Of a stretch of 64,000 nucleotides of DNA, positions 13,996-27,092 are shown one piece after another; the stretch's first letter is position 1; each line of letters starts with the position of its first letter. The translations under genes and the position numbers were made by a program. The stretch covers positions 352,001 through 416,000 of the forward strand of contig CAVVLJ010000016.1 in NCBI GenBank assembly GCA_963749075.1. Direction: 5' to 3'. The notes beneath the pieces are model-generated. The model saw nothing but the letters and a program-made list of their open reading frames with translations. It made no database searches and had not been told where the DNA came from. Source of the DNA: an uncultured Pseudomonadota bacterium (lineage in GTDB: Bacteria; Pseudomonadota; Alphaproteobacteria; JACZXZ01).

Positions 13996-14575
13996 CTTCA
14001 TCTCAGGAGCAGAGAGCCGGTCACGCTCTGGCTGCGACAGGTTTTGCGGCCGCTTTTCTTCCAGAATCGCCGCTGACACGGGGCCGGTGCGCGGCGCGGG
14101 CTCGCGCATGGCAGCGAGAGTATTTGCGTTGGGGGCAAACAGGCGCTCGTAATGGAGGACGCGGGCGGCCGCGTCGCCGGGGAGTGCCGCGACGAGCTCT
14201 CGATTGGGCGGGACATGCGCCTTCACCGCGAAGGCCCGCGAACGGGCCGTGTCCAACAGGATCTCGAGGACCTCGCCTTCAAGCGAACCCGGATAGTCGC
14301 GCGAGTTGAGCGTGATCTCGCGGCCGGCGATCGTCTGGCGCGTGGTCGGGTGGCCGACGGCCGACAGGCGAGGAGGGCTCCGGACGGCACCGGCCGTCCG
14401 GAGCGCCAAGAACGCGGGCGGTCAGAGGACCGGTGCGGATCCCGATACCGCTCCAGGGCTGGTGGTGTTGCCACCGACTAGGTTGTTCCCCGTGGAGAGC
14501 ACCGTCCCGCCACTGGCGGTCGATATGCCGGTGGTCGCCCGGGACGGCCAGCGCAGGGACGCATCACTCGCCCGA

Positions 14576-15538
14576 TCAGTTGAGCGGAGTGCCGGTGAGC
14601 GGCGTCCCATCGATCGTTGTGTTGCCGTTGATGCCGTTGTCTTTGTATGAATATATCGCGCCGCCGCCGGAGCCGACGCCGGTGGCGTTGAGCGTGACCG
14701 TCGAGTTGCCCATCAGGAGGGTAGAGCCCGTACCGTTCGCGATGACGCCTGTGGTGCCGTTGCCGACGGAGGCGCTGCGATCCATCATCACGAGCGGAGG
14801 CCGCCCGCCCGCCGGCCCGGTGACGGTGATGCCGGAGTTGGCGCTGCCCGAGACCACGGTGTCCCGGATGAGGAGTTCGATAAATGGGCCGGTGCTGCCC
14901 GTGCCGTCCGCCGTGATTCCGGACGCGTTCCCCTCCACGCGAATGCCGTCGAGGAAGGCTTGCGCAGAGCCGGATCCGTTCGGCTTGACCAGGATGCCGC
15001 CGCCGTTGGCGCCGCTGCCGTTGTTCGATATATAGGTGTCGGACACGAAGAGCTGGGCCGCGCCGGTGGGAGCGAAATTGATGCCGATCGCGGAGCCGCT
15101 ATTGAACCCGCGGATGATGCAATCCTCGACGTGCAGCAGCCCGGCCCCGGTGAAGCTGATTCCGATGAGCCCGGTCGTGACTCCCTCGAAATCCAAACCT
15201 TGCAGCTTCACGATGGATCCTGCGGGCGTGCTGACGGTAATGCCGTTGGTCCCCGACGCCAGCACGCCCGCCGTCCCGACTTGGCAGATGATGGCGATCG
15301 AATTGGTGATGGTGAGCCCGCCGAAGGCGCCGGGATCCAAGCAGTTGATCTCGCCAGCCACGGCCGTCTTCGAGATGGCGCCGGCAAAGGTCCTGCAGGG
15401 TGCGGTGCGGCTGCATGGATTGGCATCGTTACCGACGCCGGAAACCCAGGTCTGTGTCGCTTGAGCCTGAGCGGGTGCCGTGTGCAAGAGCGGCAGGCAT
15501 ACGGCGCCGGCGAAAGCCAAGACTGTCGAGATTCTCAT
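14576..15538 (-). CDS. Secreted right-handed beta-helix (pectin-lyase-like fold) protein
   Basis: Signal peptide MRISTVLAFAG...AQA, then TQTWVSGVGNDANPCSRTAPCRTFAGAISKT and GI/NG-rich PbH1-type repeats. Confidence 0.85.
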   Translation of the reverse strand: MRISTVLAFAGAVCLPLLHTAPAQAQATQTWVSGVGNDANPCSRTAPCRTFAGAISKTAVAGEINCLDPGAFGGLTITNSIAIICQVGTAGVLASGTNGITVSTPAGSIVKLQGLDFEGVTTGLIGISFTGAGLLHVEDCIIRGFNSGSAIGINFAPTGAAQLFVSDTYISNNGSGANGGGILVKPNGSGSAQAFLDGIRVEGNASGITADGTGSTGPFIELLIRDTVVSGSANSGITVTGPAGGRPPLVMMDRSASVGNGTTGVIANGTGSTLLMGNSTVTLNATGVGSGGGAIYSYKDNGINGNTTIDGTPLTGTPLN

Positions 15539-15639
15539 GATCCTTCTCCCCTTGCTCGTCTGTAGATAGGTGAGCGCATTGGCACGCCACGTGATCTGGC
15601 GTTCGGCATGCCCAGGGCCTCGACCCGTCCGTGTCTTGC

Positions 15640-15651
15640 GGGGGGGGGGGG
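15640..15651. repeat. G12 homopolymer in the 5' region of the beta-helix gene
   Basis: Twelve consecutive G between a minus-strand TATAAT (15686-15691) and the ATG at 15538. Confidence 0.8.
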
Positions 15652-15791
15652 CGAAATCTGCCCTCTTTTCGCTCAATCGGCGTCGATTATACGCCCAATA
15701 TGTGATATCGCGTGCAATGCTGGCCCTTCCAGCTCGCGCGTCGGAAGAAAATCGCGAACTTCCCCTTCGGAGCACGCGAAAGGCGATCGGC

Positions 15792-15990
15792 TCAGGGATG
15801 GGCATGCGGCGGCAGGAGCGGCACCGGCGCCTCGATGCCGCCCTTGGTGAAGGCGACCGATTCCGCGGTGATGCGCTCGACGCGCCAGCCCTCGACCACG
15901 TCGCCGGTCCGCACCTGGTAGGATTTGCCCGTCGACTGCGAGACGATGAGCGCATCCTGCTCGCGTGCGGAAACCACGACCCCTTGAGCT
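15792..15990 (-). pseudogene. 3' fragment of a T2SS GspC / PilP-like (HR domain) gene
   Basis: QGVVVSAREQDALIVSQSTGKSYQVRTGDVVEGWRVERITAESVAFTKGG fits the GVV...ALI...V..GD.V.GW.V..I....V pattern. No N-terminal part of its own. Confidence 0.55.
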
Positions 15991-16045
15991 GGAATTGCCG
16001 CGCACCGCCGTCTGCTTCGCCAGCCGAGGACGGCGGCGGCCGGCG

Positions 16046-16535
16046 CGTCGTCGAGCACGCGGCCGGCGGCGGTCGGCTTGTCGTAGCTGCCGCCGAAGAT
16101 CGAGCTCGCCTGCCCCGGGTAATTGAACCAGATGCGGTTCTCGAGCGGGTATTTGACGCTCTCGACGGCGGTCGATTTGACGGCCACGTTATAGACGTGC
16201 ACGAAATGCCGGTCCCGCGCCTTGGTGTAGTCGCAGCCGCCCGTAGGCGTGCAGCCCGCCGCGACGTAGGCGTCCTTGTCCCAATGGAAGCTGTCGCGGT
16301 AGGTGAGGTACTGGTTCGTCGTCGCCATGCCCTGCGGCACGGTCGCGGCCGCGTCGCTGTTCGTAGGCGAGCACGGCACTGCGGTTGAACGGATCGGTGA
16401 TCTCTGTCACCAGGAGGGGCTGGCCGACGCGGCCGTATGCGAAGGTGGTCTGCCGCCCGGCCGCGTCGGTGAGGGAGACGAGGCGCTCCTGGCCGTCATA
16501 GGTGAGCGTAAGCGCATTGCCTTGCGGGTCGATCC
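16046..16535 (-). pseudogene. Relic Rhs fragments (third, diverged copy with a 236-bp internal deletion)
   Basis: 16361-16535 aligns to 22762-22936 (offset 6401; IDPQGNALTL..YD.QERLVSLTDAAGRQTTFAYGR). 16046-16359 aligns to 22211-22524 (offset 6165; RDSFHWDK...ESVKYPLENRIWFNY...GRVLDD). Confidence 0.88.
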
Positions 16536-16544
16536 AAGTGTCGT

Positions 16545-17126
16545 TCAATGTTCCGACTTCGCGTAAGCCTGCAGCAGCTTATTGCGCCATTCTAGCGGCA
16601 ACACGCGTTGAGAAAGTCCATAACTGGGAGGGTTCTCGATGGCTTTGTCAATAGGCAGAGCATTGAGCTGTACGATCACCGACCTGAATATGTCGTGCAC
16701 TCCGTTCTCGCGAACCGCGAGCACTGCTATTTCGTTATTTCTTTCGCAATAAATGCACCAGCGGTTGGCGTCGGACGTGCACCCATAACGATCCATTTGA
16801 TATAGCCATCCAGAGCCGATACTAGAACCACGTATGAGCGACATGTAGGTCTCAGTTCCCATGCTTCCATCCAGAAACAGAGAGGCTTGCTCCAGATCGC
16901 CCTTAGCACGTGCTTCTTCTAGGTTAGTCAAACAGGCACAAGATCCACCCTCTTCTCCGAGAAGGATTCCAACTCGTCCAACAAATTGGGGCTCGAAAAT
17001 CCATTCAGGGTCAAAGAAAAAAAATTGATCCCAGCCGTTCCGAAAAACATTTTTGGGGAATCGGCAGTCGAGCCTTAGCTCCGTGCTTAGGTTTGATAAG
17101 GCCTTTTTTCTCAGATCATCGTACAC
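16545..17126 (-). CDS. Putative immunity protein for orphan Rhs toxin CT2
   Basis: 193 aa, markedly low GC, GTG start after GGAGA, immediately downstream of the orphan toxin. Confidence 0.75.
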   Translation of the reverse strand: MYDDLRKKALSNLSTELRLDCRFPKNVFRNGWDQFFFFDPEWIFEPQFVGRVGILLGEEGGSCACLTNLEEARAKGDLEQASLFLDGSMGTETYMSLIRGSSIGSGWLYQMDRYGCTSDANRWCIYCERNNEIAVLAVRENGVHDIFRSVIVQLNALPIDKAIENPPSYGLSQRVLPLEWRNKLLQAYAKSEH

Positions 17127-17178
17127 CGAGCTTCTCCGATCGTCGCAAATAACAAGTCAAAACCATCTTGGTCATGTC

Positions 17179-19062
17179 TCACGGGCCGCCTAACCGAATC
17201 TTCAACAGTGTTCGCCCAGCTGAATTAAATACCTGAGCGCTCGCTTCTCCTGTGCTGGTCGCCGTGTATATTGTGTAGGTTGTCTCGCCATTGCTAAGGG
17301 TAATAAACGGGCCGTTCGTTGAGACTCCCTGTCTTACAATGTTAAATCCCATCGAGGTTAGATTAGTTTCAAAATCTGTCGCCGTCACATCGGTCCCGAT
17401 ATTGAGAATTTCGCCGGTCTGTGCAATCGTATCGTCCCAAAGTGATGTAGCTCCCGCTTCCTCTGCCGCGGCTATACCTTCCTCGGCGACCGCCAGCTCC
17501 GGTGCCACCAAGCCGAGCGTGGCGCCCAGCGCTGCTCCAATACCAGCAGCAGCGGCGACTTGGCCCCAGTTCACGCACCCGAGATTGCCGCCGTTACCGT
17601 AGAGCTGCGCCGCCAGATCACCGAAACCACCGAGAAGGGCGCCGACCCCGGCACCGACGAGGCCGAACCTCCCGCTTGGATCTGTTAGGCTGACCGGGTT
17701 GCCGTTGACATAACGGTACAGATTTGCGGCCGGATCGCTCCTTTCGCCAAAGGTGTCGCGCGAGAGCCATCGCCCGGAGACGGGGTCGTAGGCCCGGTAT
17801 TGCGTCAGGTACAGCCCGCTGTCGGAGTTGTAGAACATGCCGGCGTAGTTGAAGTCGGTCACCGGCGCCGTGGTCTGCAGCGGGTTGCCGTAGGGGTCGT
17901 AGGCGTAGGCCGGCGCGCTCGTGGCGCTGGCGAAGGCGCGGCGCACCGAGCCGAGCTGGTCGGGGCCGTAGTAATAGGGCTGCGCCGGGGTGCCCGGAAC
18001 GAGCTCGCCCTCGGCAACATATTCCCGCGTCGGTGCATTGGCGGCGTTGCGCGCCTGGCAGATGCGGCCGCCGCACCAGAGGTAGGAGGTGGCGACCGCA
18101 CCGCTGCCGCCGGCGGCGCGGCTATGATGGCGCGCCCGCGAGATGAAGGAGCTCGTGATCGGGGCGCCGCCGCCCCAGAGCGTGCTCGTGATCGCGGTGC
18201 GCCGGCCGAGCCCGTCGTAGGCGAAGGCGGTCCGCTTGCCCGTCTGCCCCGGATATCCCGGATAGCCGATGGCGAGGAGCCGGTTCTCGGCGTCCCAGGC
18301 GTAGGTGCGCAGCCCGTCGGAGAGCAGGTTGCCGTTGGCGTCGTAGGTGAAGGGCTGGCCCGAGAGGCTGGTCAGCGCATTGACGTTGTTGTAGCCCGCG
18401 GTCTGAGTCCCCGGGCTCGGATAGACGGTCGGGCTGTCGCTCGTCTCGCTGATGGCGGCGATGAAGTTCTCGGGCGTCGTGGTGTAGGCGTAAGTCGAGT
18501 ACTGGCCCGAGGAGAGCCCGACGTTGCTGATCCCCGCAAGGCGGCGGTCGCCCGAGTTGGGGAGATAGCTCCAGGTGGTCGCCAAGGTCGAGCTCGCGAG
18601 CTGGCGGCTCGTGATCTGCCCGGTCTGGCCGAGGTAGGCGAGCGCGAAGGCGCCGAGGTCGCTCGCGTGGCTGGTGAGCCGGCCGATGGCGTCGTAGCCG
18701 AAGGTCTCGGCCCCGGCGGCGCCGACGGTGCGCGAGGCGAGCCGCCCGAGCGCGTCATAGACGTAGCTGATGGCACTCACCGGCAGCGCGCTGCTCTCCT
18801 GCCGCAGGCGCAAGGCGCCGAGCGAGCCTATCGCGACATAGGCGTAGCTCGTGGTGCCGGTGCCGTCCGCCATCGAGACGAGGCGCGGGAAGTAGGGGTC
18901 GTAGGCGAAGGCGACGTTGGGCGTGGGGTTGGCCGCGTTGAGATAGGCGATGCCGGCCAGCCGGTCGTCCTCGAAGTAGCTGTATTGCTTCACCTGCGCG
19001 AGGGCGTCGGTGACCGATGCGAGGCGGCTCGTGGTGCTCTCGTAGGCGTAGCCAAAATCCAT
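17179..19062 (-). CDS. Orphan Rhs core plus C-terminal toxin module (CT2)
   Basis: 17705-19051 is a colinear, highly similar copy of 20128-21474 (constant offset 2423). Core end LYRYVNGNPVSLTDPSGR is followed by a different 162-aa tip. Lacks the N-terminal export/C39 region. Confidence 0.9.
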   Translation of the reverse strand: MDFGYAYESTTSRLASVTDALAQVKQYSYFEDDRLAGIAYLNAANPTPNVAFAYDPYFPRLVSMADGTGTTSYAYVAIGSLGALRLRQESSALPVSAISYVYDALGRLASRTVGAAGAETFGYDAIGRLTSHASDLGAFALAYLGQTGQITSRQLASSTLATTWSYLPNSGDRRLAGISNVGLSSGQYSTYAYTTTPENFIAAISETSDSPTVYPSPGTQTAGYNNVNALTSLSGQPFTYDANGNLLSDGLRTYAWDAENRLLAIGYPGYPGQTGKRTAFAYDGLGRRTAITSTLWGGGAPITSSFISRARHHSRAAGGSGAVATSYLWCGGRICQARNAANAPTREYVAEGELVPGTPAQPYYYGPDQLGSVRRAFASATSAPAYAYDPYGNPLQTTAPVTDFNYAGMFYNSDSGLYLTQYRAYDPVSGRWLSRDTFGERSDPAANLYRYVNGNPVSLTDPSGRFGLVGAGVGALLGGFGDLAAQLYGNGGNLGCVNWGQVAAAAGIGAALGATLGLVAPELAVAEEGIAAAEEAGATSLWDDTIAQTGEILNIGTDVTATDFETNLTSMGFNIVRQGVSTNGPFITLSNGETTYTIYTATSTGEASAQVFNSAGRTLLKIRLGGP

Positions 19063-19212
19063 TCTGATCCAACAATTTCTCACCGATCGACGTGCAATTA
19101 CACGAAGCCTACTCCCAATCAACCCCGAGCCCTCATTCGTCCAGTTACGCCGCTCTGGGACCATGCGCCGATTGCATAGCGTGCTGACTCGCGGTCGAAG
19201 CGCTGCATCCAA

Positions 19213-19503
19213 TCATCGGTCCGACCCTTGCGACCTTTCTTTGGCTTTCGATATGTCGAATCCACATTGTCGACAACTAACTGGAAAGAACGGCGTAGCC
19301 AACCGGGTCGGTGGAAACAGGCGCGCCCGACATCGAGGGCAACGAAAGCGAGCGGCGTAGATATAAAACGCAGGAACTATACATGACGGGGCAAGGAGAT
19401 AGATCCAACCGTTCGCATTTAGAAGGTGCAGGGTTTCGAACGCGATGAGGAGCGCGATCAAGCCGGCTGTTTGGGCTATATGCAGCTTCGTCGTGACGCT
19501 CAT
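19213..19503 (-). CDS. Putative immunity protein for Rhs CT1 (2 TM helices plus CxxC/CxxC zinc ribbon)
   Basis: 96 aa, lower GC, directly downstream of the full-length Rhs. Hydrophobic N-half, CPRC and CRQC. Confidence 0.65.
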   Translation of the reverse strand: MSVTTKLHIAQTAGLIALLIAFETLHLLNANGWIYLLAPSCIVPAFYIYAARFRCPRCRARLFPPTRLATPFFPVSCRQCGFDISKAKERSQGSDR

Positions 19504-19580
19504 ACTAGGCCTTCGCGATGCGCGTTTATCACAAGGTCCGATTAGATCACGTCGGCGCCATTGCGCTTGCCGCTGCTCCT

Positions 19581-22500
19581 TTAGGGGCCAAGTATGAAAC
19601 GATGGCTGACCCCTGGAATGGATGCCGCAGGACCAATCCGCGTCGCTGCGGCGGTATCTCCGTTCGCTGCCGCCAATGCAGCGGTTACTGCGCCGGTCGT
19701 CTCATAGGTCGTAGATTGTTGAACACTCATGGCTAATGGAACGCCAGTTAGTGCCTGTACTCCGGATGCGCCAATCGATATCTGGAATCCCGACGGATTT
19801 TGATAGCTGGACGGCTGACTCGGATTGAAATTTGCGCCATATGTCGGTCCACCTCCAATTGGACCACGTGCTCCCGCAAATGCACTTCCGAACTGATTTC
19901 CAAAAAAATTCTCCGGTCCGCCGAATGTGTTCTGGAGAATAATGTTTGCCGAAATGTCCACGCCGCCCCCACAACCAATAGTGGCAAACGTGCCAAATCT
20001 TCCGGTATCGGTGTTGAAGTAGATACCAGCAGTGATCGAGCCTCCGCCGCCGAAAAATCCGCTCAGGTTCAGTCCAAGCGACCATGTATCCAGACCGCCG
20101 GGATCGGTGTTATTTAGCGGATCATTATTGACATAGCGGTACAGATTTCCGGCCGGATCGCTCCTTTCGCCAAAGGGATCGCGCGAGAGCCATCGCCCGA
20201 TGGCCGGATTGTAGGCCCGGTACTGCGTCAGGTAGAGCCCGCTGTCGGCGTTGTAGAACATCCCGGCGTAGTTGAGGTCGGTGACCGGGGCGGTCGCCTG
20301 GAGCGGGTTGCCGTAGGGGTCGTAGCTGTAGGCCGGCGCGCTCGTGGCGCTGGCGAAGGCGCGGCGCACCGAGCCGAGCTGGTCGGGGCCGTAATAATAG
20401 GGCTGCGCCGGGGAGCCGGGGACTACCTCGCCCTCGGCAACATATTCCCGCGTCGGCGCATTGGCGGCGTTCCTTGCCTGGCAGATGCGCGCGCCGCACC
20501 AGAGGTAGGAGGTGGCGACCGCACCGCTGCCGCCGGCGGCGCGGCTATAGTGGCGCGCCCGCGAGATGAAGGAGCTCGTGATCGGGGCGCCGCCGCCCCA
20601 GAGTATGCTCGTGATCGCGGTGCGCCGGCCGAGCCCGTCATAGGCGAAGGCGGTCTCCTTGCCGGTCTGCCCCGGATATCCCGGATAGCCGATGGCGACG
20701 AGGCGGTTCTCGGCGTCCCAGGCATAGGTGCGCAGCCCGTCGGAGAGCAGGTTGCCGTTGGCGTCGTAGGTGAAGGGCTGGCCCGAGAGGCTGGTCAGCG
20801 CGTTCACGTTGTTGTAGCTCGCGGTCTGGGTCCCCGTGGTGGGGTACACCGTGGCGCTGTCGCTCGTCTCGCTGATGGCGGCGATGAAGTTCTCGGGCGT
20901 CGTGGTGTAGGCGTAGGTGGAGTACCGGCCCGAGGAGAGCCCGACGTTGCTGATCCCGGCGAGGCGGCGGTCGCCCGAGTTGGGGAGATAGCTCCACGTG
21001 GTCGCCAAGGTCGAGCTCGCGAGCTGCCGGCTCGTGATCTGCCCGGTCTGGCCGAGGTAGGCGAGCGCGAAGGCGCCGAGGTCGCTCGCGTGGGAGGTCA
21101 GCCGGCCGATCGCGTCGTAGCCGAAGGTCTCGGCCCCGGCGCCGCCGACGGTGCGCGAGGCGAGCCGCCCGAGCGCGTCATAGACGTAGCCGATGGCGCT
21201 CACCGGCAGCGGGCCGCTTTCCTGCTGCAGGCGCAAGGCGCCGAGCGAGCCTATCGCGACATAGGCGTAGCTCGTGGTGCCTGTGCCGTCGCTCATCGAG
21301 ACGAGGCGCGGGAAGTACGGGTCGTAGGCGAAGCCAACGTTGGGCGTGGAGTTGGCCGCGTTCAGATAGGCGATGCCGGCGAGCCGGTCGTCCTCGAAGT
21401 AGCTGTATTGCTTGACCTGCGCGAGGGCGTCGGTCACCGTCTTGAGGCGGCTCGTGGTGTTCTCGTAGGCGTAGGCGATGGTGCTGCTGTCGGCGTATTG
21501 CTTCGCCGTGAGCCGGCCCTCAACGTCGTAGCTCCAGCCCGTGACGTTGCCGTTGGGGTCGGTCAGGCCGGTCAGCTCGCCGATGCCGTTGTAGGCGAAG
21601 AGCGTGCGGTTGCCGAGGGGGTCGGTGATCGCGGTCAGGCGGCGGTCGGCATCGTGGGCATAGAGCCACGTCCGGAACTGGCGGTCCTGGTAGGAGGCGA
21701 GATCGAGATTGTCGTAGGTGTAAATGTCCGTCGTGCCGTCGGGGTAGGTTATCTTCGTGACGCGGTCGGCGGCATCATAGCCGTAGGCGACGGTCCAGCC
21801 CTCGGAATCCGTGTAGCTCGCGACCCGGTCGAAGGCATCGTAGGTGAAGCTCGCGGCGGTGGCGCCGTTGGCGTTGACGATGGCGCTCAGATCGCCCGCG
21901 GCGTCGTACTGGAAGCTCGTCGTCTGGTTGAGCGCGTTGGTGAGGGAGGTGAGCTGCCCGGCGGCATTGTACGCATAGCTCGTGGTCTCGCCCGCCGCGT
22001 CGGTATAGAGGAGCGGCCGGTGGTGGCTGTTGTAGGTGAACTGGGCGACCGGCGTCTGGATGCCGGGCGCCGTGGTCTGGCTGACCGTGGCGAGATCGAC
22101 GTGGTTGGCGGCATAGGCGAAGGAGGTGGTGCGGCCGAGGGGATCGATGGCCTGGGTGAGATTAAAGAAGCCGGCCGCGTCGTAGGAGAACTGGCGGAGC
22201 TGGGTCGAGCCGTCGTCGAGCACGCGGCCGGCGGCGGTCGGCTTGTCGTAGATGCCGGCATCGGTGGAAAACGGCTGCCCCACATAGTTGAACCAGATGC
22301 GGTTCTCGAGCGGGTATTTGACGCTCTCGATGCTGGTCGATTTGACGGCGATACGGGGCACGTGCAGGAAATGCCGGTCCCGCGCCTTGGTGTAGTCGCA
22401 GCCCCCGCTCGCGGTGCAGCCGGCCACGACGTAGGCGTTCTTGTCCCAATGAAAGCTGTCGCGCGTGTCGAGATATTGGTTCGTCACCGCCAAGCCTTGC

Positions 22501-24473
22501 GGCAGCGTGTTGCCGGCATCGCTGCCCGGGACCCCCGGGATCGGCGCCGGGGGGTTCTCCAGCCATTCCTCGCGCTCGTTGAGGCCCAGCGGGTCGGTCA
22601 CTTGCACGAAGCGCGGCGGGGCGCTCGTGCCGGGTGCCGTGTAGGCGAAGCTCGTCGTGCCGTAGGGCGTGGTCATGGCATCGACGAGCGAGTTGGCGTC
22701 GTAGCTGAAGCTCGAGGTCAAGCCGAGCACGTCAGTGATCGAGACGAGGCGGCCGTAGAGGTCGTAGGTCAGGACGGCACTGCGGTTGAAGGGATCGGTG
22801 ATCCCGGTCACGAGCAGCGGCTGGCCGATACGGCCGTAGGCGAAGGTCGTTTGCCGTCCGGCTGCGTCGGTCAGCGAGACGAGCCGCTCCTGGTTGTCGT
22901 AGCTGAGCGTGAGCGCGTTGCCTTGCGGGTCGATCATCTGGCTCAAGAAGACGTTGCGCGGAAAGGCGGTGCTGCCGTCGGATTGGGCATAGACCTCGAT
23001 GCTCCCGTCCCGCAGCTGGCGCTGATAGTTGACCGGCGTCTCGGACTTGAGCACCAGGATGGAGCCGTCATTGTCCTGGGCTGTGAACTGGCCGGTGCTG
23101 CCGTTATAGCCGCTGTATTGGAAGGAACCTCCGCCGGCGAGATAACGCGTGACGCGGGCACCCGGATTGGTCGGGTCGTCCGTCACATAAGTGAGCCAGT
23201 TCAGCGTCCACTTCTGGCTGACGTTGAAGAAGGCGAAGTTCGCCGGCTGGCTGTCCTCGCGCTGGTTATAGGTGATACGGGTTTTCGCCGAGGGCCCGAT
23301 GGGCGGGTCGTAACCGACCGGCACGTCGGACAAGGTGACGCTGACGGTCAATTCGCCGATATTGTAGCCGCACAGCGGGCAGGTGCCGGACGCATTCGCT
23401 TGCACATCCCTGGCGCCGGCAGCGCCCGGGGCCGTGCTGCTCGTCGGACCCCTCCCCCACACGCCGCCCGCCTCCTTCTCGTCCACCGCCCTCCAGCCGG
23501 CGCCGTCCTGAGCGCCGGCCGGCGCCAGGAAATAGCCGCTCGCCTCCTCGTCGAGCGCCGCCGCCGTGACCCAAAGCTCCTGGCCCGCGAAGACCGGGTC
23601 CGCGACCTGGAAGCGGCCATTGGCCTGGCCGGTGATTGCGGCAAAATGGCCGAGCTTCCAATGCACGATCGAGGGCACCGGCACCGGTTGGCCCGGCTTG
23701 CGGAAGACCAGGCGGTGGGGAAACTTCGTCTCCTCGGCGAGATGCGCCACCTCCGAGAGGCTCGTGCCGTTCGGCCCGGCGCGATACCACTGGAGGGACA
23801 GGACCTGTGCCTGCTTGGCGCCCTGCGCGAGCATCAGCGAGCCGAGCGCCAGCGGGCCGCAATTGAAGAGGTATCGGGGGTTGCTCTTGGCCAGCGACAG
23901 CTCCTCCCGTGCGGCTTGCACCGCTTCGGTCGCGGAGCCGGTCACCGGACGATCGCCGATCTCCTCGAAGAGGGCTGCGAGGCTCTCGACATGCCCGAGG
24001 GCGCCATGGAGCCGCGCGAGCTCGCCGACCGCCCGGTCGACGAGTGCCTTGGCCTGCGGCTCGGTGGCGCCTTTGCCCTCGTGCCAAGCCTGGTTCCAGG
24101 CGTCGAGTGCCCGCGAGAAATAGCCGTAATGGAGGTAGGAGATGCCGAGATTGGTGAGCAGCGCCGCGGCCCAGCCCGAATGCGGATAGCGCGCCAGGAA
24201 GGCGGTGAGGCTGCCAACGTCGTCGGGTGTGGCGCGCTTGCCGTAGGCCGCCAAGGCCTGCAGGAGGGCCTGGTCTTCCGCGGGCGTGGTGGGGCCGGTC
24301 GCCATGAGCGGCTCGGCAAGATGCGCGGCCCGGATTGCCGCCGCGACGGGCTCGGCGGTGCCGGGAGCGCTCGCCGCCTCTGCCGCACGCGGGAGGCATG
24401 CTGCGTACAACAGCAGCAGCGCCGCCATGGCGATCGAGGCCGCGAACAAGGCCGGCCGCCTCGGCAGCTTCAT
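19581..24473 (-). CDS. Rhs/YD-repeat polymorphic toxin: signal peptide, TPR-like helix region, C39 peptidase domain, Rhs shell, Rhs core and CT1
   Basis: MKLPRRPALFAASIAMAALLLL...AEA; C39 triad motifs FNCGPLAL / VHWKLGHF / VADP; many YD repeats; core YAGMFYNADSGLYLTQYRAYNPAIGRWLSRDP...YRYVNNDPLNNTDPGGL; 169-aa low-GC tip. About 1630 aa. Confidence 0.95.
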   Translation of the reverse strand: MKLPRRPALFAASIAMAALLLLYAACLPRAAEAASAPGTAEPVAAAIRAAHLAEPLMATGPTTPAEDQALLQALAAYGKRATPDDVGSLTAFLARYPHSGWAAALLTNLGISYLHYGYFSRALDAWNQAWHEGKGATEPQAKALVDRAVGELARLHGALGHVESLAALFEEIGDRPVTGSATEAVQAAREELSLAKSNPRYLFNCGPLALGSLMLAQGAKQAQVLSLQWYRAGPNGTSLSEVAHLAEETKFPHRLVFRKPGQPVPVPSIVHWKLGHFAAITGQANGRFQVADPVFAGQELWVTAAALDEEASGYFLAPAGAQDGAGWRAVDEKEAGGVWGRGPTSSTAPGAAGARDVQANASGTCPLCGYNIGELTVSVTLSDVPVGYDPPIGPSAKTRITYNQREDSQPANFAFFNVSQKWTLNWLTYVTDDPTNPGARVTRYLAGGGSFQYSGYNGSTGQFTAQDNDGSILVLKSETPVNYQRQLRDGSIEVYAQSDGSTAFPRNVFLSQMIDPQGNALTLSYDNQERLVSLTDAAGRQTTFAYGRIGQPLLVTGITDPFNRSAVLTYDLYGRLVSITDVLGLTSSFSYDANSLVDAMTTPYGTTSFAYTAPGTSAPPRFVQVTDPLGLNEREEWLENPPAPIPGVPGSDAGNTLPQGLAVTNQYLDTRDSFHWDKNAYVVAGCTASGGCDYTKARDRHFLHVPRIAVKSTSIESVKYPLENRIWFNYVGQPFSTDAGIYDKPTAAGRVLDDGSTQLRQFSYDAAGFFNLTQAIDPLGRTTSFAYAANHVDLATVSQTTAPGIQTPVAQFTYNSHHRPLLYTDAAGETTSYAYNAAGQLTSLTNALNQTTSFQYDAAGDLSAIVNANGATAASFTYDAFDRVASYTDSEGWTVAYGYDAADRVTKITYPDGTTDIYTYDNLDLASYQDRQFRTWLYAHDADRRLTAITDPLGNRTLFAYNGIGELTGLTDPNGNVTGWSYDVEGRLTAKQYADSSTIAYAYENTTSRLKTVTDALAQVKQYSYFEDDRLAGIAYLNAANSTPNVGFAYDPYFPRLVSMSDGTGTTSYAYVAIGSLGALRLQQESGPLPVSAIGYVYDALGRLASRTVGGAGAETFGYDAIGRLTSHASDLGAFALAYLGQTGQITSRQLASSTLATTWSYLPNSGDRRLAGISNVGLSSGRYSTYAYTTTPENFIAAISETSDSATVYPTTGTQTASYNNVNALTSLSGQPFTYDANGNLLSDGLRTYAWDAENRLVAIGYPGYPGQTGKETAFAYDGLGRRTAITSILWGGGAPITSSFISRARHYSRAAGGSGAVATSYLWCGARICQARNAANAPTREYVAEGEVVPGSPAQPYYYGPDQLGSVRRAFASATSAPAYSYDPYGNPLQATAPVTDLNYAGMFYNADSGLYLTQYRAYNPAIGRWLSRDPFGERSDPAGNLYRYVNNDPLNNTDPGGLDTWSLGLNLSGFFGGGGSITAGIYFNTDTGRFGTFATIGCGGGVDISANIILQNTFGGPENFFGNQFGSAFAGARGPIGGGPTYGANFNPSQPSSYQNPSGFQISIGASGVQALTGVPLAMSVQQSTTYETTGAVTAALAAANGDTAAATRIGPAASIPGVSHRFILGP

Positions 24474-24508
24474 CTTCCACGCTCCGGGCGCCCGGAGAGC
24501 TCGCGCTA

Positions 24509-24808
24509 TCAGGGCGTCCAAGTGAAGCAACCCCATACGCCCGTGCCCCATGTCGGCTGCTCGGGCGCGCTGGAGATGGTATTGGTTTGCGCTGTCCGAT
24601 TGCCGTTCGCGTCGTAGCTGTAGGCGATGCATAGGCCGTTGTCGTAAAGACCCGTCGTGAGGCGCCCAAGCTGATCGTAGGTGTAGGAAACCGAGCCGAT
24701 CGCGCCGCCGGGAATCAAGATGCCGAGCAACGCCAGCAGCGCAGCCGCGACGCGCGCTCTTGCGGGCTCAATCGTCACGCGATCGTCTTCCGGGCGCATG
24801 GGGCTCAT
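24509..24808 (-). CDS. Small secreted YD-repeat protein with Trp/Gly-rich tail
   Basis: Hydrophobic leader, then SVSYTYDQLGRLTTGLYDNGLCIAYSYDANGNRT, then PTWGTGVWGCFTWTP. Start could be 24808 or 24799. Confidence 0.78.
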   Translation of the reverse strand: MSPMRPEDDRVTIEPARARVAAALLALLGILIPGGAIGSVSYTYDQLGRLTTGLYDNGLCIAYSYDANGNRTAQTNTISSAPEQPTWGTGVWGCFTWTP

Positions 24809-24813
24809 CAAGG

Positions 24814-25767
24814 TCAGGGGTAGGTGATTTCCAGCGAATCGATGGTGATATTCGTGTCGATCCCGCCGCCTTGTCCACCGCACATGATGCCGGCGTAGGC
24901 GATGGGCGCCCCGATCCACGAATTGTTATCGGAGTTGGTTTCGGCCCAGACGCGGCCGTTCTGGCTGATATAGAAGCTGTTGCCGGACGACGTGCTGACG
25001 ACGCGCAGCCAGATGGCGTCCGAATAGGTGATGGCGACACGCGACGAACTGGCATAGGTCCAGCCCGCATTCCAGTAGCTCCACTCGTTCGACAATCCAC
25101 CGGTATAGATCGCCGTGAACATCTGGACCTTGCCGCCGGTCATGGCTGACGAGGCGAGCACGATACCCTGGACCTGATAGTTCACGGCGACGAGGCTGGG
25201 CCGTATTCTCGCCGTGATGGTGAAGCTCGTCGCGGTGACGGGCAGCATTAGCCCTGCATATGCGGAATTCGACACCGGGTTGGTGAAATTCACGAAATTG
25301 CCGTCCTGCACGGCCGTCGCGGTCCCCTGCACCATCCAGACCATATTCGCCAGCACCGGCGGCGTGAAGGTCGCGTCCGAGCCGTTGTTCCCGGCCGCCC
25401 CGCCGCCGGTGATCGTAATGCTGCCGGGGCCATTCGTGATGGCGATACCCGATCCCGCGGTCAGCGTCGTCGCTTGCGGAGGTCCCCCGCTCGAGCCGAT
25501 GGCGAGCTGACCGTTGGTCAAGGGACCGGCGCCGCCGAAATTTCCGGCGCCGCCGTTATATTGAACGGCGTTGGCAGCACCCCCGGGGGCGGCGTTGTTG
25601 ACGCAAGCCAACAGCGCATTGAAATTTGCCATGACCTGCGAAGCGTCCGCGGTCTGGCCGTTGGTGAATTGATAGGGCAGCGTGCACTCCGCCTCGGCGG
25701 CATTGCTACCAGGCAAGATCACGCAGGCGAACGCCGAGAGCGCCGCGAGAACGGAATTCCATCGCAT
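24814..25767 (-). CDS. Secreted tail-fibre/adhesin-like protein with a probable beta-sandwich (lectin-like) C-terminal domain
   Basis: Signal peptide; CTLPYQFTNGQTADASQVMANFNAL head; fibre-like VQYNGGAGNFGG, TNGQLAIGSSG, TLTAGSGIAITNGPGSITI; C-terminal WLRVVSTSSGNSFYISQNGRVW. Confidence 0.78.
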   Translation of the reverse strand: MRWNSVLAALSAFACVILPGSNAAEAECTLPYQFTNGQTADASQVMANFNALLACVNNAAPGGAANAVQYNGGAGNFGGAGPLTNGQLAIGSSGGPPQATTLTAGSGIAITNGPGSITITGGGAAGNNGSDATFTPPVLANMVWMVQGTATAVQDGNFVNFTNPVSNSAYAGLMLPVTATSFTITARIRPSLVAVNYQVQGIVLASSAMTGGKVQMFTAIYTGGLSNEWSYWNAGWTYASSSRVAITYSDAIWLRVVSTSSGNSFYISQNGRVWAETNSDNNSWIGAPIAYAGIMCGGQGGGIDTNITIDSLEITYP

Positions 25768-26017
25768 GACGTTACCCTCGCATGCTTGCACGGATCGGCC
25801 CGCGCAGCATGTCGGATAACCTACGATTATGTACACGTATCAGTCGAGTAAATTTATGACGACAATATGATAGATTGTCAGATTATGCAGGCATTCACCA
25901 TGGCGCGCATGGATCGAGCTTATTGCGCAGCCTATGCGCGTTCGTTTGTTTTTGCCCTTGCGCTGCGCTTATGTTCATGATACGTTCCAAGCCGCGTGCA
26001 GCGACGGAGGGCGGGCG

Positions 26018-26440
26018 ATGGAGCGCGATCCCGATTGCATCTTCTGCAAGATCGCGGCGGGCGAGGCGCCGTGCTTCAAGCTCTACGAGGACGCGGCGAC
26101 GCTCGCCTTCATGGACATCAACCCGGCGAACGAAGGCCATTGCCTGGCGATTCCCAAGGCGCATTTCGTGGACATCTACGGGGCGTCCCCGGGCGAGGTG
26201 GGGCGGGTGGCCGAGACCGCGCGCAAGGTGGCGAAGGCGGTGCGCGACGTGGTCAGGCCCGACGGCCTCAACCTCGTGCAGTCGAACGGTCCGGGTGCGG
26301 CCCAGTCGGTCATGCACTTCCACATCCACGTGCTGCCGCGCACGAGCGGCGACGAGCTCAAGATCAACTGGCCGCTCGTGCCGGGGGACCGCGTGGCGAT
26401 CGGCTTGCTCGCCGAGAAGATCAGGGCGAGGCTCTCTTAA
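26018..26440 (+). CDS. HIT family hydrolase
   Basis: DCIFCKIAAGE, AFMDINP..EGHCLAIPK, QSVMHFHIHVLPR histidine triad. Confidence 0.95.
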   Translation: MERDPDCIFCKIAAGEAPCFKLYEDAATLAFMDINPANEGHCLAIPKAHFVDIYGASPGEVGRVAETARKVAKAVRDVVRPDGLNLVQSNGPGAAQSVMHFHIHVLPRTSGDELKINWPLVPGDRVAIGLLAEKIRARLS

Positions 26441-26457
26441 GCGCGGGCGTGCGTGCC

Positions 26458-26697
26458 ATGGTCAAGCTCAAGGTCATCGCGGTCGGCAGCTCGCTCGGCG
26501 TGGTGTTGCCCAAGGCGGTGCTGGCGCGCCTCAAGGTGGCGAAGGGCGATTGCCTGTTCTTCACCGAGGCGCCGGACGGCTTCCGGGTGACGCCCTACGA
26601 TCCCGACTTCGAGCGGCAGATGGTACTCGCCCGCCGCATCATGGGCGAGCGCCGCGACGTGCTCAGGGCGTTGGCCAGGAGGGAACTGGCCAAATGA
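26458..26697 (+). CDS. AbrB/MazE/SpoVT-family antitoxin
   Basis: LKVIAVGSSLGVVLPK...YDPDFERQM...RRDVLRALA. Overlaps the doc start (ATGA). Confidence 0.88.
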   Translation: MVKLKVIAVGSSLGVVLPKAVLARLKVAKGDCLFFTEAPDGFRVTPYDPDFERQMVLARRIMGERRDVLRALARRELAK

Positions 26698-27092
26698 GCG
26701 GGCGCGCCTGGCGCTGGCTCGGCGAAGAGGCGGCGCTCGCCATCCACGATGCGCAGTTGGCCGAGCATGGCGGTGCCGGCGGCCCCGGCGAGCGCGCCCT
26801 CGTGCAAGCGGCCTTGGCGCGCCCGCGCCGTCTCGCGGCCGGGGGCGAGCCGGACGCGGCGGAGCTTGCCGCCGCTTACGCCTGCGGCCTCGCGCGCACG
26901 GAGGGCTTCGCGGACGGCAAGAGGCGGACGGCCTACGTGGCGGCACTCGCCTTCTCGCTCGACAACGGCTACCGGTTCACCGGCGGCGACGTCGAATCCG
27001 CCGAGGCGATGCGGGCGCTCTCCGCCGGCGACATGACGGAGGAGGAGCTCGCCCGCTGGTTCCGCGCCCGGCTGGTCGCGGCCGGGTCCTGA
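26694..27092 (+). CDS. doc: Death-on-curing (Doc/Fic) family toxin with degenerate active site
   Basis: AIHDAQLAEHGG, ALARP, ELAAAYACGLA. Fic motif reads TEGFADGKRRTA instead of NHxFxDGNKRT. Confidence 0.85.
   Translation: MSGRAWRWLGEEAALAIHDAQLAEHGGAGGPGERALVQAALARPRRLAAGGEPDAAELAAAYACGLARTEGFADGKRRTAYVAALAFSLDNGYRFTGGDVESAEAMRALSAGDMTEEELARWFRARLVAAGS

Follow-up and report, generated by a model that had tools for sequence, protein, structure and literature searches.

How does an Rhs toxin that begins with an export signal leave a cell with two membranes, and how does it find its target? Gram-negative Rhs toxins are, to our knowledge, understood nearly exclusively as type VI secretion system (T6SS) cargo or as components of Tc toxins. 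The question is raised here by a row of genes on the minus strand of a 64,000-nucleotide stretch of an uncultured alphaproteobacterial genome (G000:C16:352001-416000; hereafter the window), whose assembly holds 5.49 Mb in 23 contigs at about 70% G+C. At the centre of the row stands a gene for a 1630-aa Rhs protein (19581-24473), preceded by genes for a 99-aa mini-YD protein (24509-24808) and a 317-aa fibre-like secreted protein (24814-25767). With a probability of roughly 0.7, we read this locus as a mobile, T6SS-independent Rhs polymorphic toxin with two dedicated secreted helpers. The reading draws on the domain architecture of the Rhs protein, the operon layout, the conservation of the three-gene module and its lack of a T6SS link. 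The family is a concrete and widespread test case for how signal-peptide Rhs proteins exit a two-membrane cell and find their target. Its parts are tractable, comprising an intact peptidase triad, a tiny conserved YD protein and a putatively lectin-tipped fibre whose head varies in the manner of receptor-binding proteins.

The Rhs protein and its peptidase head

The Rhs protein, identical to the called protein P0001, opens with a signal peptide as judged by hydropathy (aa 1-33, MKLPRRP...AAEA/AS; 24375-24473). It continues with a tetratricopeptide repeat (TPR)-like region of seven helices (aa 64-197; 23883-24284) and a C39-type cysteine peptidase domain (aa 198-345; 23439-23882). A disordered linker rich in Gly, Pro and Ala follows (aa 346-426; 23196-23438), with a predicted local distance difference test score (pLDDT) below 50. 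The linker varies in length across the Rhs family, with large indels in an alignment of 22 sequences, and gives way to a beta-rich plug and YD shell that end at DPGGL (aa 427-1461; 20091-23195). Within the shell, nine stretches match RHS_repeat (PF05593, E 3.1e-63), TIGR01643 is matched at E 3.7e-49, and the Rhs-associated core (Rhs_assc_core, TIGR03696) at E 1.1e-20, with DPGGL at aa 1457. The remaining 169 residues, of which 19% are Gly, form the toxin tip (19584-20090).

To examine the head of the protein, residues 1-520 were modelled with AlphaFold2 (AF2) using 22 homologues. The model has a pLDDT of 77 and is confident for residues 41-340. The TPR-like region reaches pLDDT values above 90, Foldseek matches it to TPR structures with probabilities of 0.9-0.99, and profile searches match it to TPR proteins at E 1e-12 to 1e-6. 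For the alpha/beta domain behind it, the best Foldseek structures are 6mpz, 5xe8, 3k8u and 7n87 (probability 1.0, TM-score 0.57-0.66, E 1e-3 to 1e-2), the double-glycine peptidase domains of LahT, ComA and PCAT1. A sequence profile search of the PDB likewise places LahT (6mpz) first among C39 domains at E 1.9e-4. No row of the 22-sequence alignment (A1, which spans 29-65% identity and includes two rows from unpublished genomes) departs from C205, H276 and D292. Because this triad is invariant, the domain is likely an active peptidase. Its substrate could be the conserved N-terminal segment of the fibre protein, the linker of the Rhs protein itself or cell-wall peptides. The C39 domains of the PCAT/AMS transporters ComA, LahT and PCAT1 share both the fold and the Cys/His/Asp triad; they are, however, cytoplasmic and fused to ABC exporters, whereas the domain described here comes after a signal peptide, in one chain with the cargo itself.

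Downstream of the tip, the row has the features of a polymorphic toxin. Immediately after the tip lies candidate immunity gene 1 (19213-19503, 96 aa), whose putative role is read from that position; its product has a hydrophobic N-terminal half with one transmembrane-like segment, a CxxC...CxxC pattern and weak zinc-ribbon matches. Next comes an orphan Rhs tail (17179-19212), a 5'-truncated shell (Rhs_assc_core E 2e-20) in which homology begins at about aa 55. Over Rhs residues 1016-1557 the identity is 80%, after which the tail passes into a different tip, with DPSG in place and 163 aa that include a glycine-zipper-like segment. Candidate immunity gene 2 (16545-17126, 193 aa) is named for its position, and its product matches no family in Pfam or NCBIfam. 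This is the layout of a classic polymorphic Rhs toxin with a spare cassette. Its hallmarks are a tip that diverges between close relatives, a small and presumably protective gene after the tip, and an orphan cassette; among the relatives, the tips include Tox-REase-9, Ntox37 and PT-HINT.

The first five genes, from the fibre gene to the orphan tail, are separated by gaps of only 5, 35, 77 and 0 nt. The minus strand was taken as the coding strand because homology supports it; long open reading frames (ORFs) that face these genes, for example 20550-24617, are shadow ORFs of the kind usual in high-G+C DNA. The initial annotation had placed the whole row on one strand, and every element it listed was recovered there, on the minus strand and at the positions it had given. 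Its domain reading of the Rhs protein, from export signal through TPR-like region, C39 peptidase, YD shell and DPxGL to tip, likewise held.

The helper proteins and the spread of the module

The mini-YD protein matches RHS_repeat (E 2.5e-7) and YD_repeat_2x (E 6.6e-5). Its hydrophobic leader is followed by two YD repeats, and its C-terminus has the motif WGxGxWGC..W. Across 42 sequences, 13 positions are invariant, both cysteines among them. In nine loci (L053, L057, L066, L075, L078, L081, L084, L086 and L022), an extra WGxxxWxxxxW repeat stands ahead of the final WGxGxWGC. Joint folding of Rhs residues 41-520 with the mature fibre and the mature mini-YD, the latter being the partner in question, gave a score of 0.02 against a mark of 0.32, which is no evidence either way.

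The fibre gene is an ORF with a GAGGG-type ribosome site, and its product is made up of a signal peptide (aa 1-26), a conserved N-module (aa 27-125) and a variable head (about aa 130-317). While no Pfam or NCBIfam family matches the protein, residues 48-120 weakly resemble the tail-fibre family phrog_31660 (E 1.9e-4, 22.3 bits). In an AF2 model based on 70 homologues (pLDDT 79.5), the leader forms a helix, a further helix spans aa 42-58, and a Gly-rich disordered stretch and a C-terminal beta-sandwich are seen. Foldseek matches the head to concanavalin A (ConA)-like sandwiches at E 1e-8 to 5e-6 with TM-scores to the target of about 0.75, among them 3mep, 3o12, GH43 C-domains, VIP36 and a legume lectin. 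The head is thus modelled as a beta-sandwich jelly-roll of the ConA-like lectin/glucanase type, with putative sugar binding. Over the 70 homologues, mean pairwise identity is 66% in the N-part (aa 27-125) versus 34% in the head, where the median is 23%.

Because of this lectin-like head and its variability, the fibre is likely the targeting part. The initial annotation had assigned it target recognition, a role that the ConA-like fold and the uneven conservation fit. Phage tail fibres, the receptor-binding proteins of tailocins and lectin-like bacteriocins resemble it in having a conserved attachment end, a variable sugar-binding head and adjacent paralogues. The fibre differs from them in that no phage tail genes lie nearby, the sequence likeness is weak, and the head is ConA-like rather than of the monocot mannose-binding lectin (MMBL) type.

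The most conserved part of the fibre is aa 27-63 (25579-25689), right behind the signal peptide, which includes the stretch NGQxADAxQVMANFNAL. Cys28 and Cys55 are near-invariant (69 and 70 of 70 sequences). The residues P-[GA]-G at positions 61-63, kept in 60, 64 and 69 of the 70 sequences, resemble a double-glycine site. A strict double-glycine leader was considered for this segment and set aside; the distance to the preceding helix shifts by 0-3 residues and only part of the hydrophobic register agrees, so that the idea stands as a hypothesis only.

The TPR-C39 head of the Rhs protein (the N-module) defines a broad family. At E<=1e-3, with 8000 proteins scored, it was found in 652 proteins, all of them Rhs proteins of about 1500-1700 aa. 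Some, from Mesorhizobium and Rhizobium, bear the NCBI name 'peptidase C39', and Bradyrhizobium, Burkholderia and Reyranella are also represented. Species genomes contributed 25 N-module loci, reaching as far as Acidobacteriota, Verrucomicrobiota, Melainabacteria, Fibrobacteres and Gemmatimonadota, and metagenomes at least 540, of which 80 were kept. A C39-Rhs head also occurs in 117 plasmid records, 108 of them Ralstonia megaplasmids (about 45% identity) and five from Rhizobium. In the sole Ralstonia locus examined, that of the R. solanacearum Po82 megaplasmid (L117), there is no mini-YD or fibre gene. The distribution is patchy, the N-module being present in one of 400 other evenly sampled genomes of the same class. 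The module occurs in soil and nodule bacteria that are culturable and genetically tractable (Rhizobium, Mesorhizobium), and it bears on the competition of strains in soil and on roots.

To assess how firmly the three genes belong together, 106 loci were scanned with hidden Markov models of the fibre N-part, the fibre head and the mini-YD protein; removal of five near-duplicates and three loci from unpublished genomes left 98. A mini-YD gene lies directly upstream of the Rhs gene on the same strand in 41 of the 88 loci with at least 450 nt of upstream sequence, at a median gap of 42 nt, and in 26 of the 58 non-redundant loci with at least 3.5 kb. Every one of these 26 loci also has fibre genes, in one to four copies, upstream in 24 cases and downstream in two. 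Counted upstream, two of the loci have no copy, twelve have one, six have two, four have three and two have four. The association of the three genes claimed in the initial annotation is thus conserved in the half of the family nearest the window. In addition to the 26, the locus of Rhizobium sp. C4 has three fibre genes, with the mini-YD gene on the other strand. The fibre genes share the strand of the Rhs gene in 25 loci and lie opposite it in 11, while one locus has both arrangements, counted in the full set before removals with at least 1.5 kb upstream. Loci with all three genes (trio loci) are the nearer relatives, with 441-783 bits versus 201-663 bits for the others. Clustering of the ORFs from 48 trio loci recovered the fibre in 47, the next real cluster occurred in at most six, and no further conserved neighbour gene was found beside the module in these loci.

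Two relatives illustrate the module. Plasmid pRetIE4803d of Rhizobium etli IE4803 has the same row, annotated as three hypothetical proteins, a 'YD repeat-containing protein' and a C39-like Rhs protein ('Rhs repeat-associated core/peptidase C39-like domain-containing protein'). In the same-genus sister genome G129, the Rhs protein is 76% identical up to residue 1512 and divergent beyond; the mini-YD protein is 76% identical, and in the fibre an identity of 61% is confined to the first 143 residues, with a different head. The variation in this mobile module thus lies at two ends, the tip of the toxin and the head of the fibre.

Other clades have different proteins at the upstream position. In eight loci (L016, L018, L085, L087, L090, L091, L093 and L095), a PEP-CTERM protein of about 230 aa replaces the mini-YD and fibre, and the mature forms of these partners start with INF[ND]D[LI][DN]AS[AS]GD. 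In further loci, secreted proteins of 960-2442 aa with LamG, fn3, RCC1 or CHB_HEX domains stand at the same place. Six of these large partners, from four phyla (L021, L024, L026, L027, L028 and L029), have in common a 16-residue C-terminal tag, [TA]PxI[TD]LxxPx[ND]Axxx[PQ], and are encoded about 100 nt ahead of the C39-Rhs gene. Judged from these loci, the wider rule seems to be a variable partner of the surface or adhesin type ahead of a constant TPR-C39-Rhs protein.

A tentative extension of this rule, which we consider rather doubtful, is that the TPR-C39 head acts as a docking and cutting station for interchangeable secreted adhesins, forming a toxin particle of cage, fibre and protease trigger that is independent of any injection machine. 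In the nearest clade, the head would grip or trim the amphipathic helix of the fibre that ends in P-[GA]-G, with the mini-YD protein as adaptor. In other clades, the tagged LamG/fn3/RCC1 proteins or the PEP-CTERM proteins would take the partner role. Diderm bacteria would release the particle and kill neighbours that display the matching surface glycan.

Export, mechanism and competing explanations

As the initial annotation had noted, the Rhs, mini-YD and fibre proteins each carry one N-terminal hydrophobic segment by hydropathy; within the Rhs protein, the strongest such stretch (Kyte-Doolittle value 2.37) is at aa 9-27. A crude rule, which requires a small-x-small site and a hydrophobic stretch of 12 residues with K or R before it, is obeyed by 99 of 116 Rhs homologues and, for the fibre, by 96 of 115. 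The Tat pathway was rejected as a candidate, since a twin-arginine-like motif occurs in five of the 116 homologues only. Of the Sec/Tat export proposed initially, the signal-peptide part is supported by hydropathy and the Tat part is unlikely.

On the reading we prefer, all three proteins would cross the inner membrane by Sec. Outside the cytoplasm the Rhs protein would fold such that its YD cage encloses the C-terminal tip, and its core would free the tip at DPGGL. The TPR and C39 regions would act as a peptide-binding unit and an active peptidase that dock or trim a partner, or cut the protein's own linker, so that the cage is either coupled to its carrier or released from it. The mini-YD protein, encoded just ahead of the Rhs protein, may serve as adaptor or cap. 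The fibre would attach through its conserved N-part while the variable lectin head binds glycans on the target surface, and additional fibre copies would broaden the target range; if this targeting idea is true, fibres predict who kills whom. The small downstream protein would shield siblings, and the orphan tail with its partner gene would be a spare cassette for swapping tips.

Several points weigh against this reading. We infer that the tips are toxic, that the small genes protect, that the peptidase is active and that the three proteins bind one another. The tips and candidate immunity proteins match no family in Pfam, even to E 1, and an Atlas search with them returned unnamed clusters only. 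The Pfam C39 score of the Rhs protein in the window, 19.7 bits, lies below the 22-bit cut-off, and the pseudomurein endoisopeptidase PeiR is matched at E 3.4e-4, nearly equal to LahT, so that more than one class of substrate is possible. The signal-peptide rule is a home-made hydropathy rule and not SignalP, and 17 of the 116 Rhs homologues fail it, several of which look like mis-called starts. The source genome has a T6SS, and its sole PAAR gene sits on the contig of the locus, at a distance of about 130 kb. Apart from the source, G129 and the Rhizobium isolate, the carrier genomes are bins of unknown completeness. Finally, 31 of the 58 loci lack both helpers, and the helpers are for this reason dispensable for the Rhs protein as such.

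The alternative that survives best, though we regard it as unlikely, is that the Rhs protein is a soluble bacteriocin released through type II secretion (T2SS) in the manner of Bcn-A, with the fibre and mini-YD proteins as secretion or stability factors rather than targeting parts. In the available part of PMC7259588, Bcn-A of Xanthomonas perforans is described as an RHS bacteriocin with supernatant activity that is lost in an xpsD mutant, that requires the accessory ORF2 and ORF4, and that has its own immunity gene. An RHS toxin, accessory ORFs, a dedicated immunity gene and T6SS independence are thus features that Bcn-A, so described, has in common with the locus. The source genome has two full GspD genes, that is, two T2SS-type secretins, together with a T2SS cluster (contigs 20, 17 and 21 hold the TssC and GspD genes). 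However, GspD exceeds its curated cut-off in 12 of 26 carrier genomes and is found in two of six trio genomes, the source and G129; Rhizobium sp. C4 is without it. Because of these counts, T2SS is possible in the source genome but cannot be the general route of the family. The T2SS export proposed initially therefore holds as a possibility for this genome and fails as a rule, and no outer-membrane channel, lysis cassette or ABC exporter is conserved beside the 48 trio loci. Moreover, Bcn-A needs T2SS, and by its description in the available part of PMC7259588, the level at which the two were compared, its accessory ORFs lie downstream and differ in size, and no C39 or TPR region is reported. 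A lectin fold with a hypervariable head also fits recognition better than a chaperone role.

A somewhat less probable alternative concerns the head domain, which may be a cell-wall peptidase acting on the stem peptides of peptidoglycan, opening the producer's or the target's wall and allowing the cage of about 170 kDa to pass, with no processing of proteins. Papain-like wall hydrolases are common on secreted weapons. The profile scores of PeiR and the best C39 domain lie close together (3.4e-4 versus 1.9e-4), and Foldseek finds PeiR with a probability of 0.99. On the other hand, the best structural matches by TM-score are all double-glycine peptidases, two relatives (P0022 and P0073) exceed the Pfam C39 threshold with 22.8 and 24.8 bits, and no wall-binding domain was detected in Pfam or NCBIfam searches. 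We find this explanation improbable.

It is very unlikely that the protein is an ordinary T6SS effector loaded on an unlinked VgrG/PAAR spike, its leader serving for membrane insertion or as a prePAAR-like element. Rhs effectors are commonly encoded as orphans at a distance from T6SS clusters, and the source genome has two adjacent TssC copies and one VgrG gene on other contigs in addition to its one PAAR gene. Yet the Rhs protein contains none of the PAAR, prePAAR or VgrG-binding families, and a whole-genome family search found no Eag gene. The absence of PAAR, VgrG, Eag and TpsB genes from the window, pointed out in the initial annotation, was borne out by whole-genome searches that place PAAR, VgrG and TpsB elsewhere. 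Homologues are not strictly tied to T6SS: among the 25 other carrier genomes, TssC is present in nine and was not found in 16, including the 100% complete G129, which has the orthologous module; nor was it found in the isolate Rhizobium sp. C4. The leader, with its positively charged n-region, hydrophobic core and AEA/A site, is conserved, and one relative carries PT-HINT, a domain that is never combined with T6SS according to the available part of PMC3482391. Compared with the T6SS effectors RhsA of Pseudomonas protegens, Tre23 and Tse15, the locus has the same YD cage, DPxGL core cut, polymorphic tip, immunity gene and orphan cassettes. It differs in that a Sec-type signal, TPR and C39 replace the PAAR or clade domain, in that VgrG, Eag and PAAR are not linked to the locus, and in that homologues reside in genomes in which TssC was not detected.

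Least probable of all is a toxin of Tc-like or anti-eukaryote type whose targets would be protists, fungi or plant cells, with downstream small genes that are not immunity genes: ConA-like heads could bind eukaryotic glycans, the carriers are soil and plant-associated bacteria and the tips have no known antibacterial family, but no TcA-like or TcB-like gene occurs among the neighbours (Pfam; 48 loci clustered), the separate small gene after each tip and the orphan cassette are the self-protection signature of interbacterial toxins, and relatives have polymorphic tips of the nuclease type.

Within the preferred reading of a T6SS-independent Rhs toxin with secreted helpers, one of the closest published classes is the Sec/'T2SS' polymorphic toxins of Zhang et al. 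2012 (PMC3482391), listed with RHS, TPR and tail-fibre repeats. The available part of that paper describes RHS toxins in which an inactive transglutaminase directly follows the signal peptide, proposes peptide binding or anchoring for this domain, and treats C39 as a toxin domain only (PMC3482391). The order of signal peptide, papain-fold domain and RHS array is the same as in the window, whereas here the papain-fold domain is C39-like, is preceded by TPR and keeps its triad in all 22 sequences. The available part of PMC3482391 makes no mention of mini-YD and fibre partners, and its supplementary tables may list this architecture. A full-text literature search found no paper describing C39-Rhs proteins with mini-YD or fibre partners. 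The initial suggestion of an undescribed system is therefore consistent with that search for this combination of domains and partners and does not hold for the class: Sec-signal Rhs toxins and a T2SS-dependent Rhs bacteriocin are already in print (PMC3482391 and PMC7259588, as far as these are available), and what appears new is the C39 head with these partners.

MafB/MafA of Neisseria and WapA of Bacillus are likewise signal-peptide polymorphic toxins, and MafB also has a conserved N-domain and an upstream accessory gene. MafB, however, has no YD cage, WapA belongs to a single-membrane host and has wall-binding repeats, and both are without a C39 domain or a lectin fibre.

Island context and neighbouring genes

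Across 15.8-25.8 kb of the window, G+C drops to 0.55-0.68, with a dip to 0.55-0.60, and the flanks of the locus have no synteny to G129. The G+C dip and the non-syntenic flanks are island features. Elsewhere in the source genome, no extra copy of the mini-YD or fibre gene was found at E<=0.01.

At the far end of the row lie Rhs relics (16046-16548, minus strand), which match RHS_repeat and contain an internal TGA. They correspond to Rhs residues 565-624 and 688-809 at 87% and 69% identity. Fused in frame to a relic is a GspC-like fragment (15782-16065, minus strand), a duplicated 3' gene end. Over 286 nt it shows 88.8% identity to G000:C17:461506-461791, where an ORF of the contig 17 T2SS cluster has its 3' end. 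This paralogous ORF has weak matches to GspC (E 7e-5 and 3e-4, both under the cut-off) and to PilP. The fragment provides no functional link; it marks a rearrangement at the edge of the island and is no working part of the system.

The left edge of the island (14172-16065) corresponds, as a partial paralogue, to the terminal stretch of contig 17's T2SS cluster. A gene for a secreted beta-helix protein in this region (14576-15499) has copies on contigs 17 and 21, with identities of 71-77%. It adjoins the GspC-like fragment, just as its counterpart follows the T2SS cluster on contig 17. At the other end, just upstream of the fibre gene, the plus strand carries a HIT-family gene and a MazE/AbrB-type antitoxin with a Fic/Doc toxin (25934-27092).

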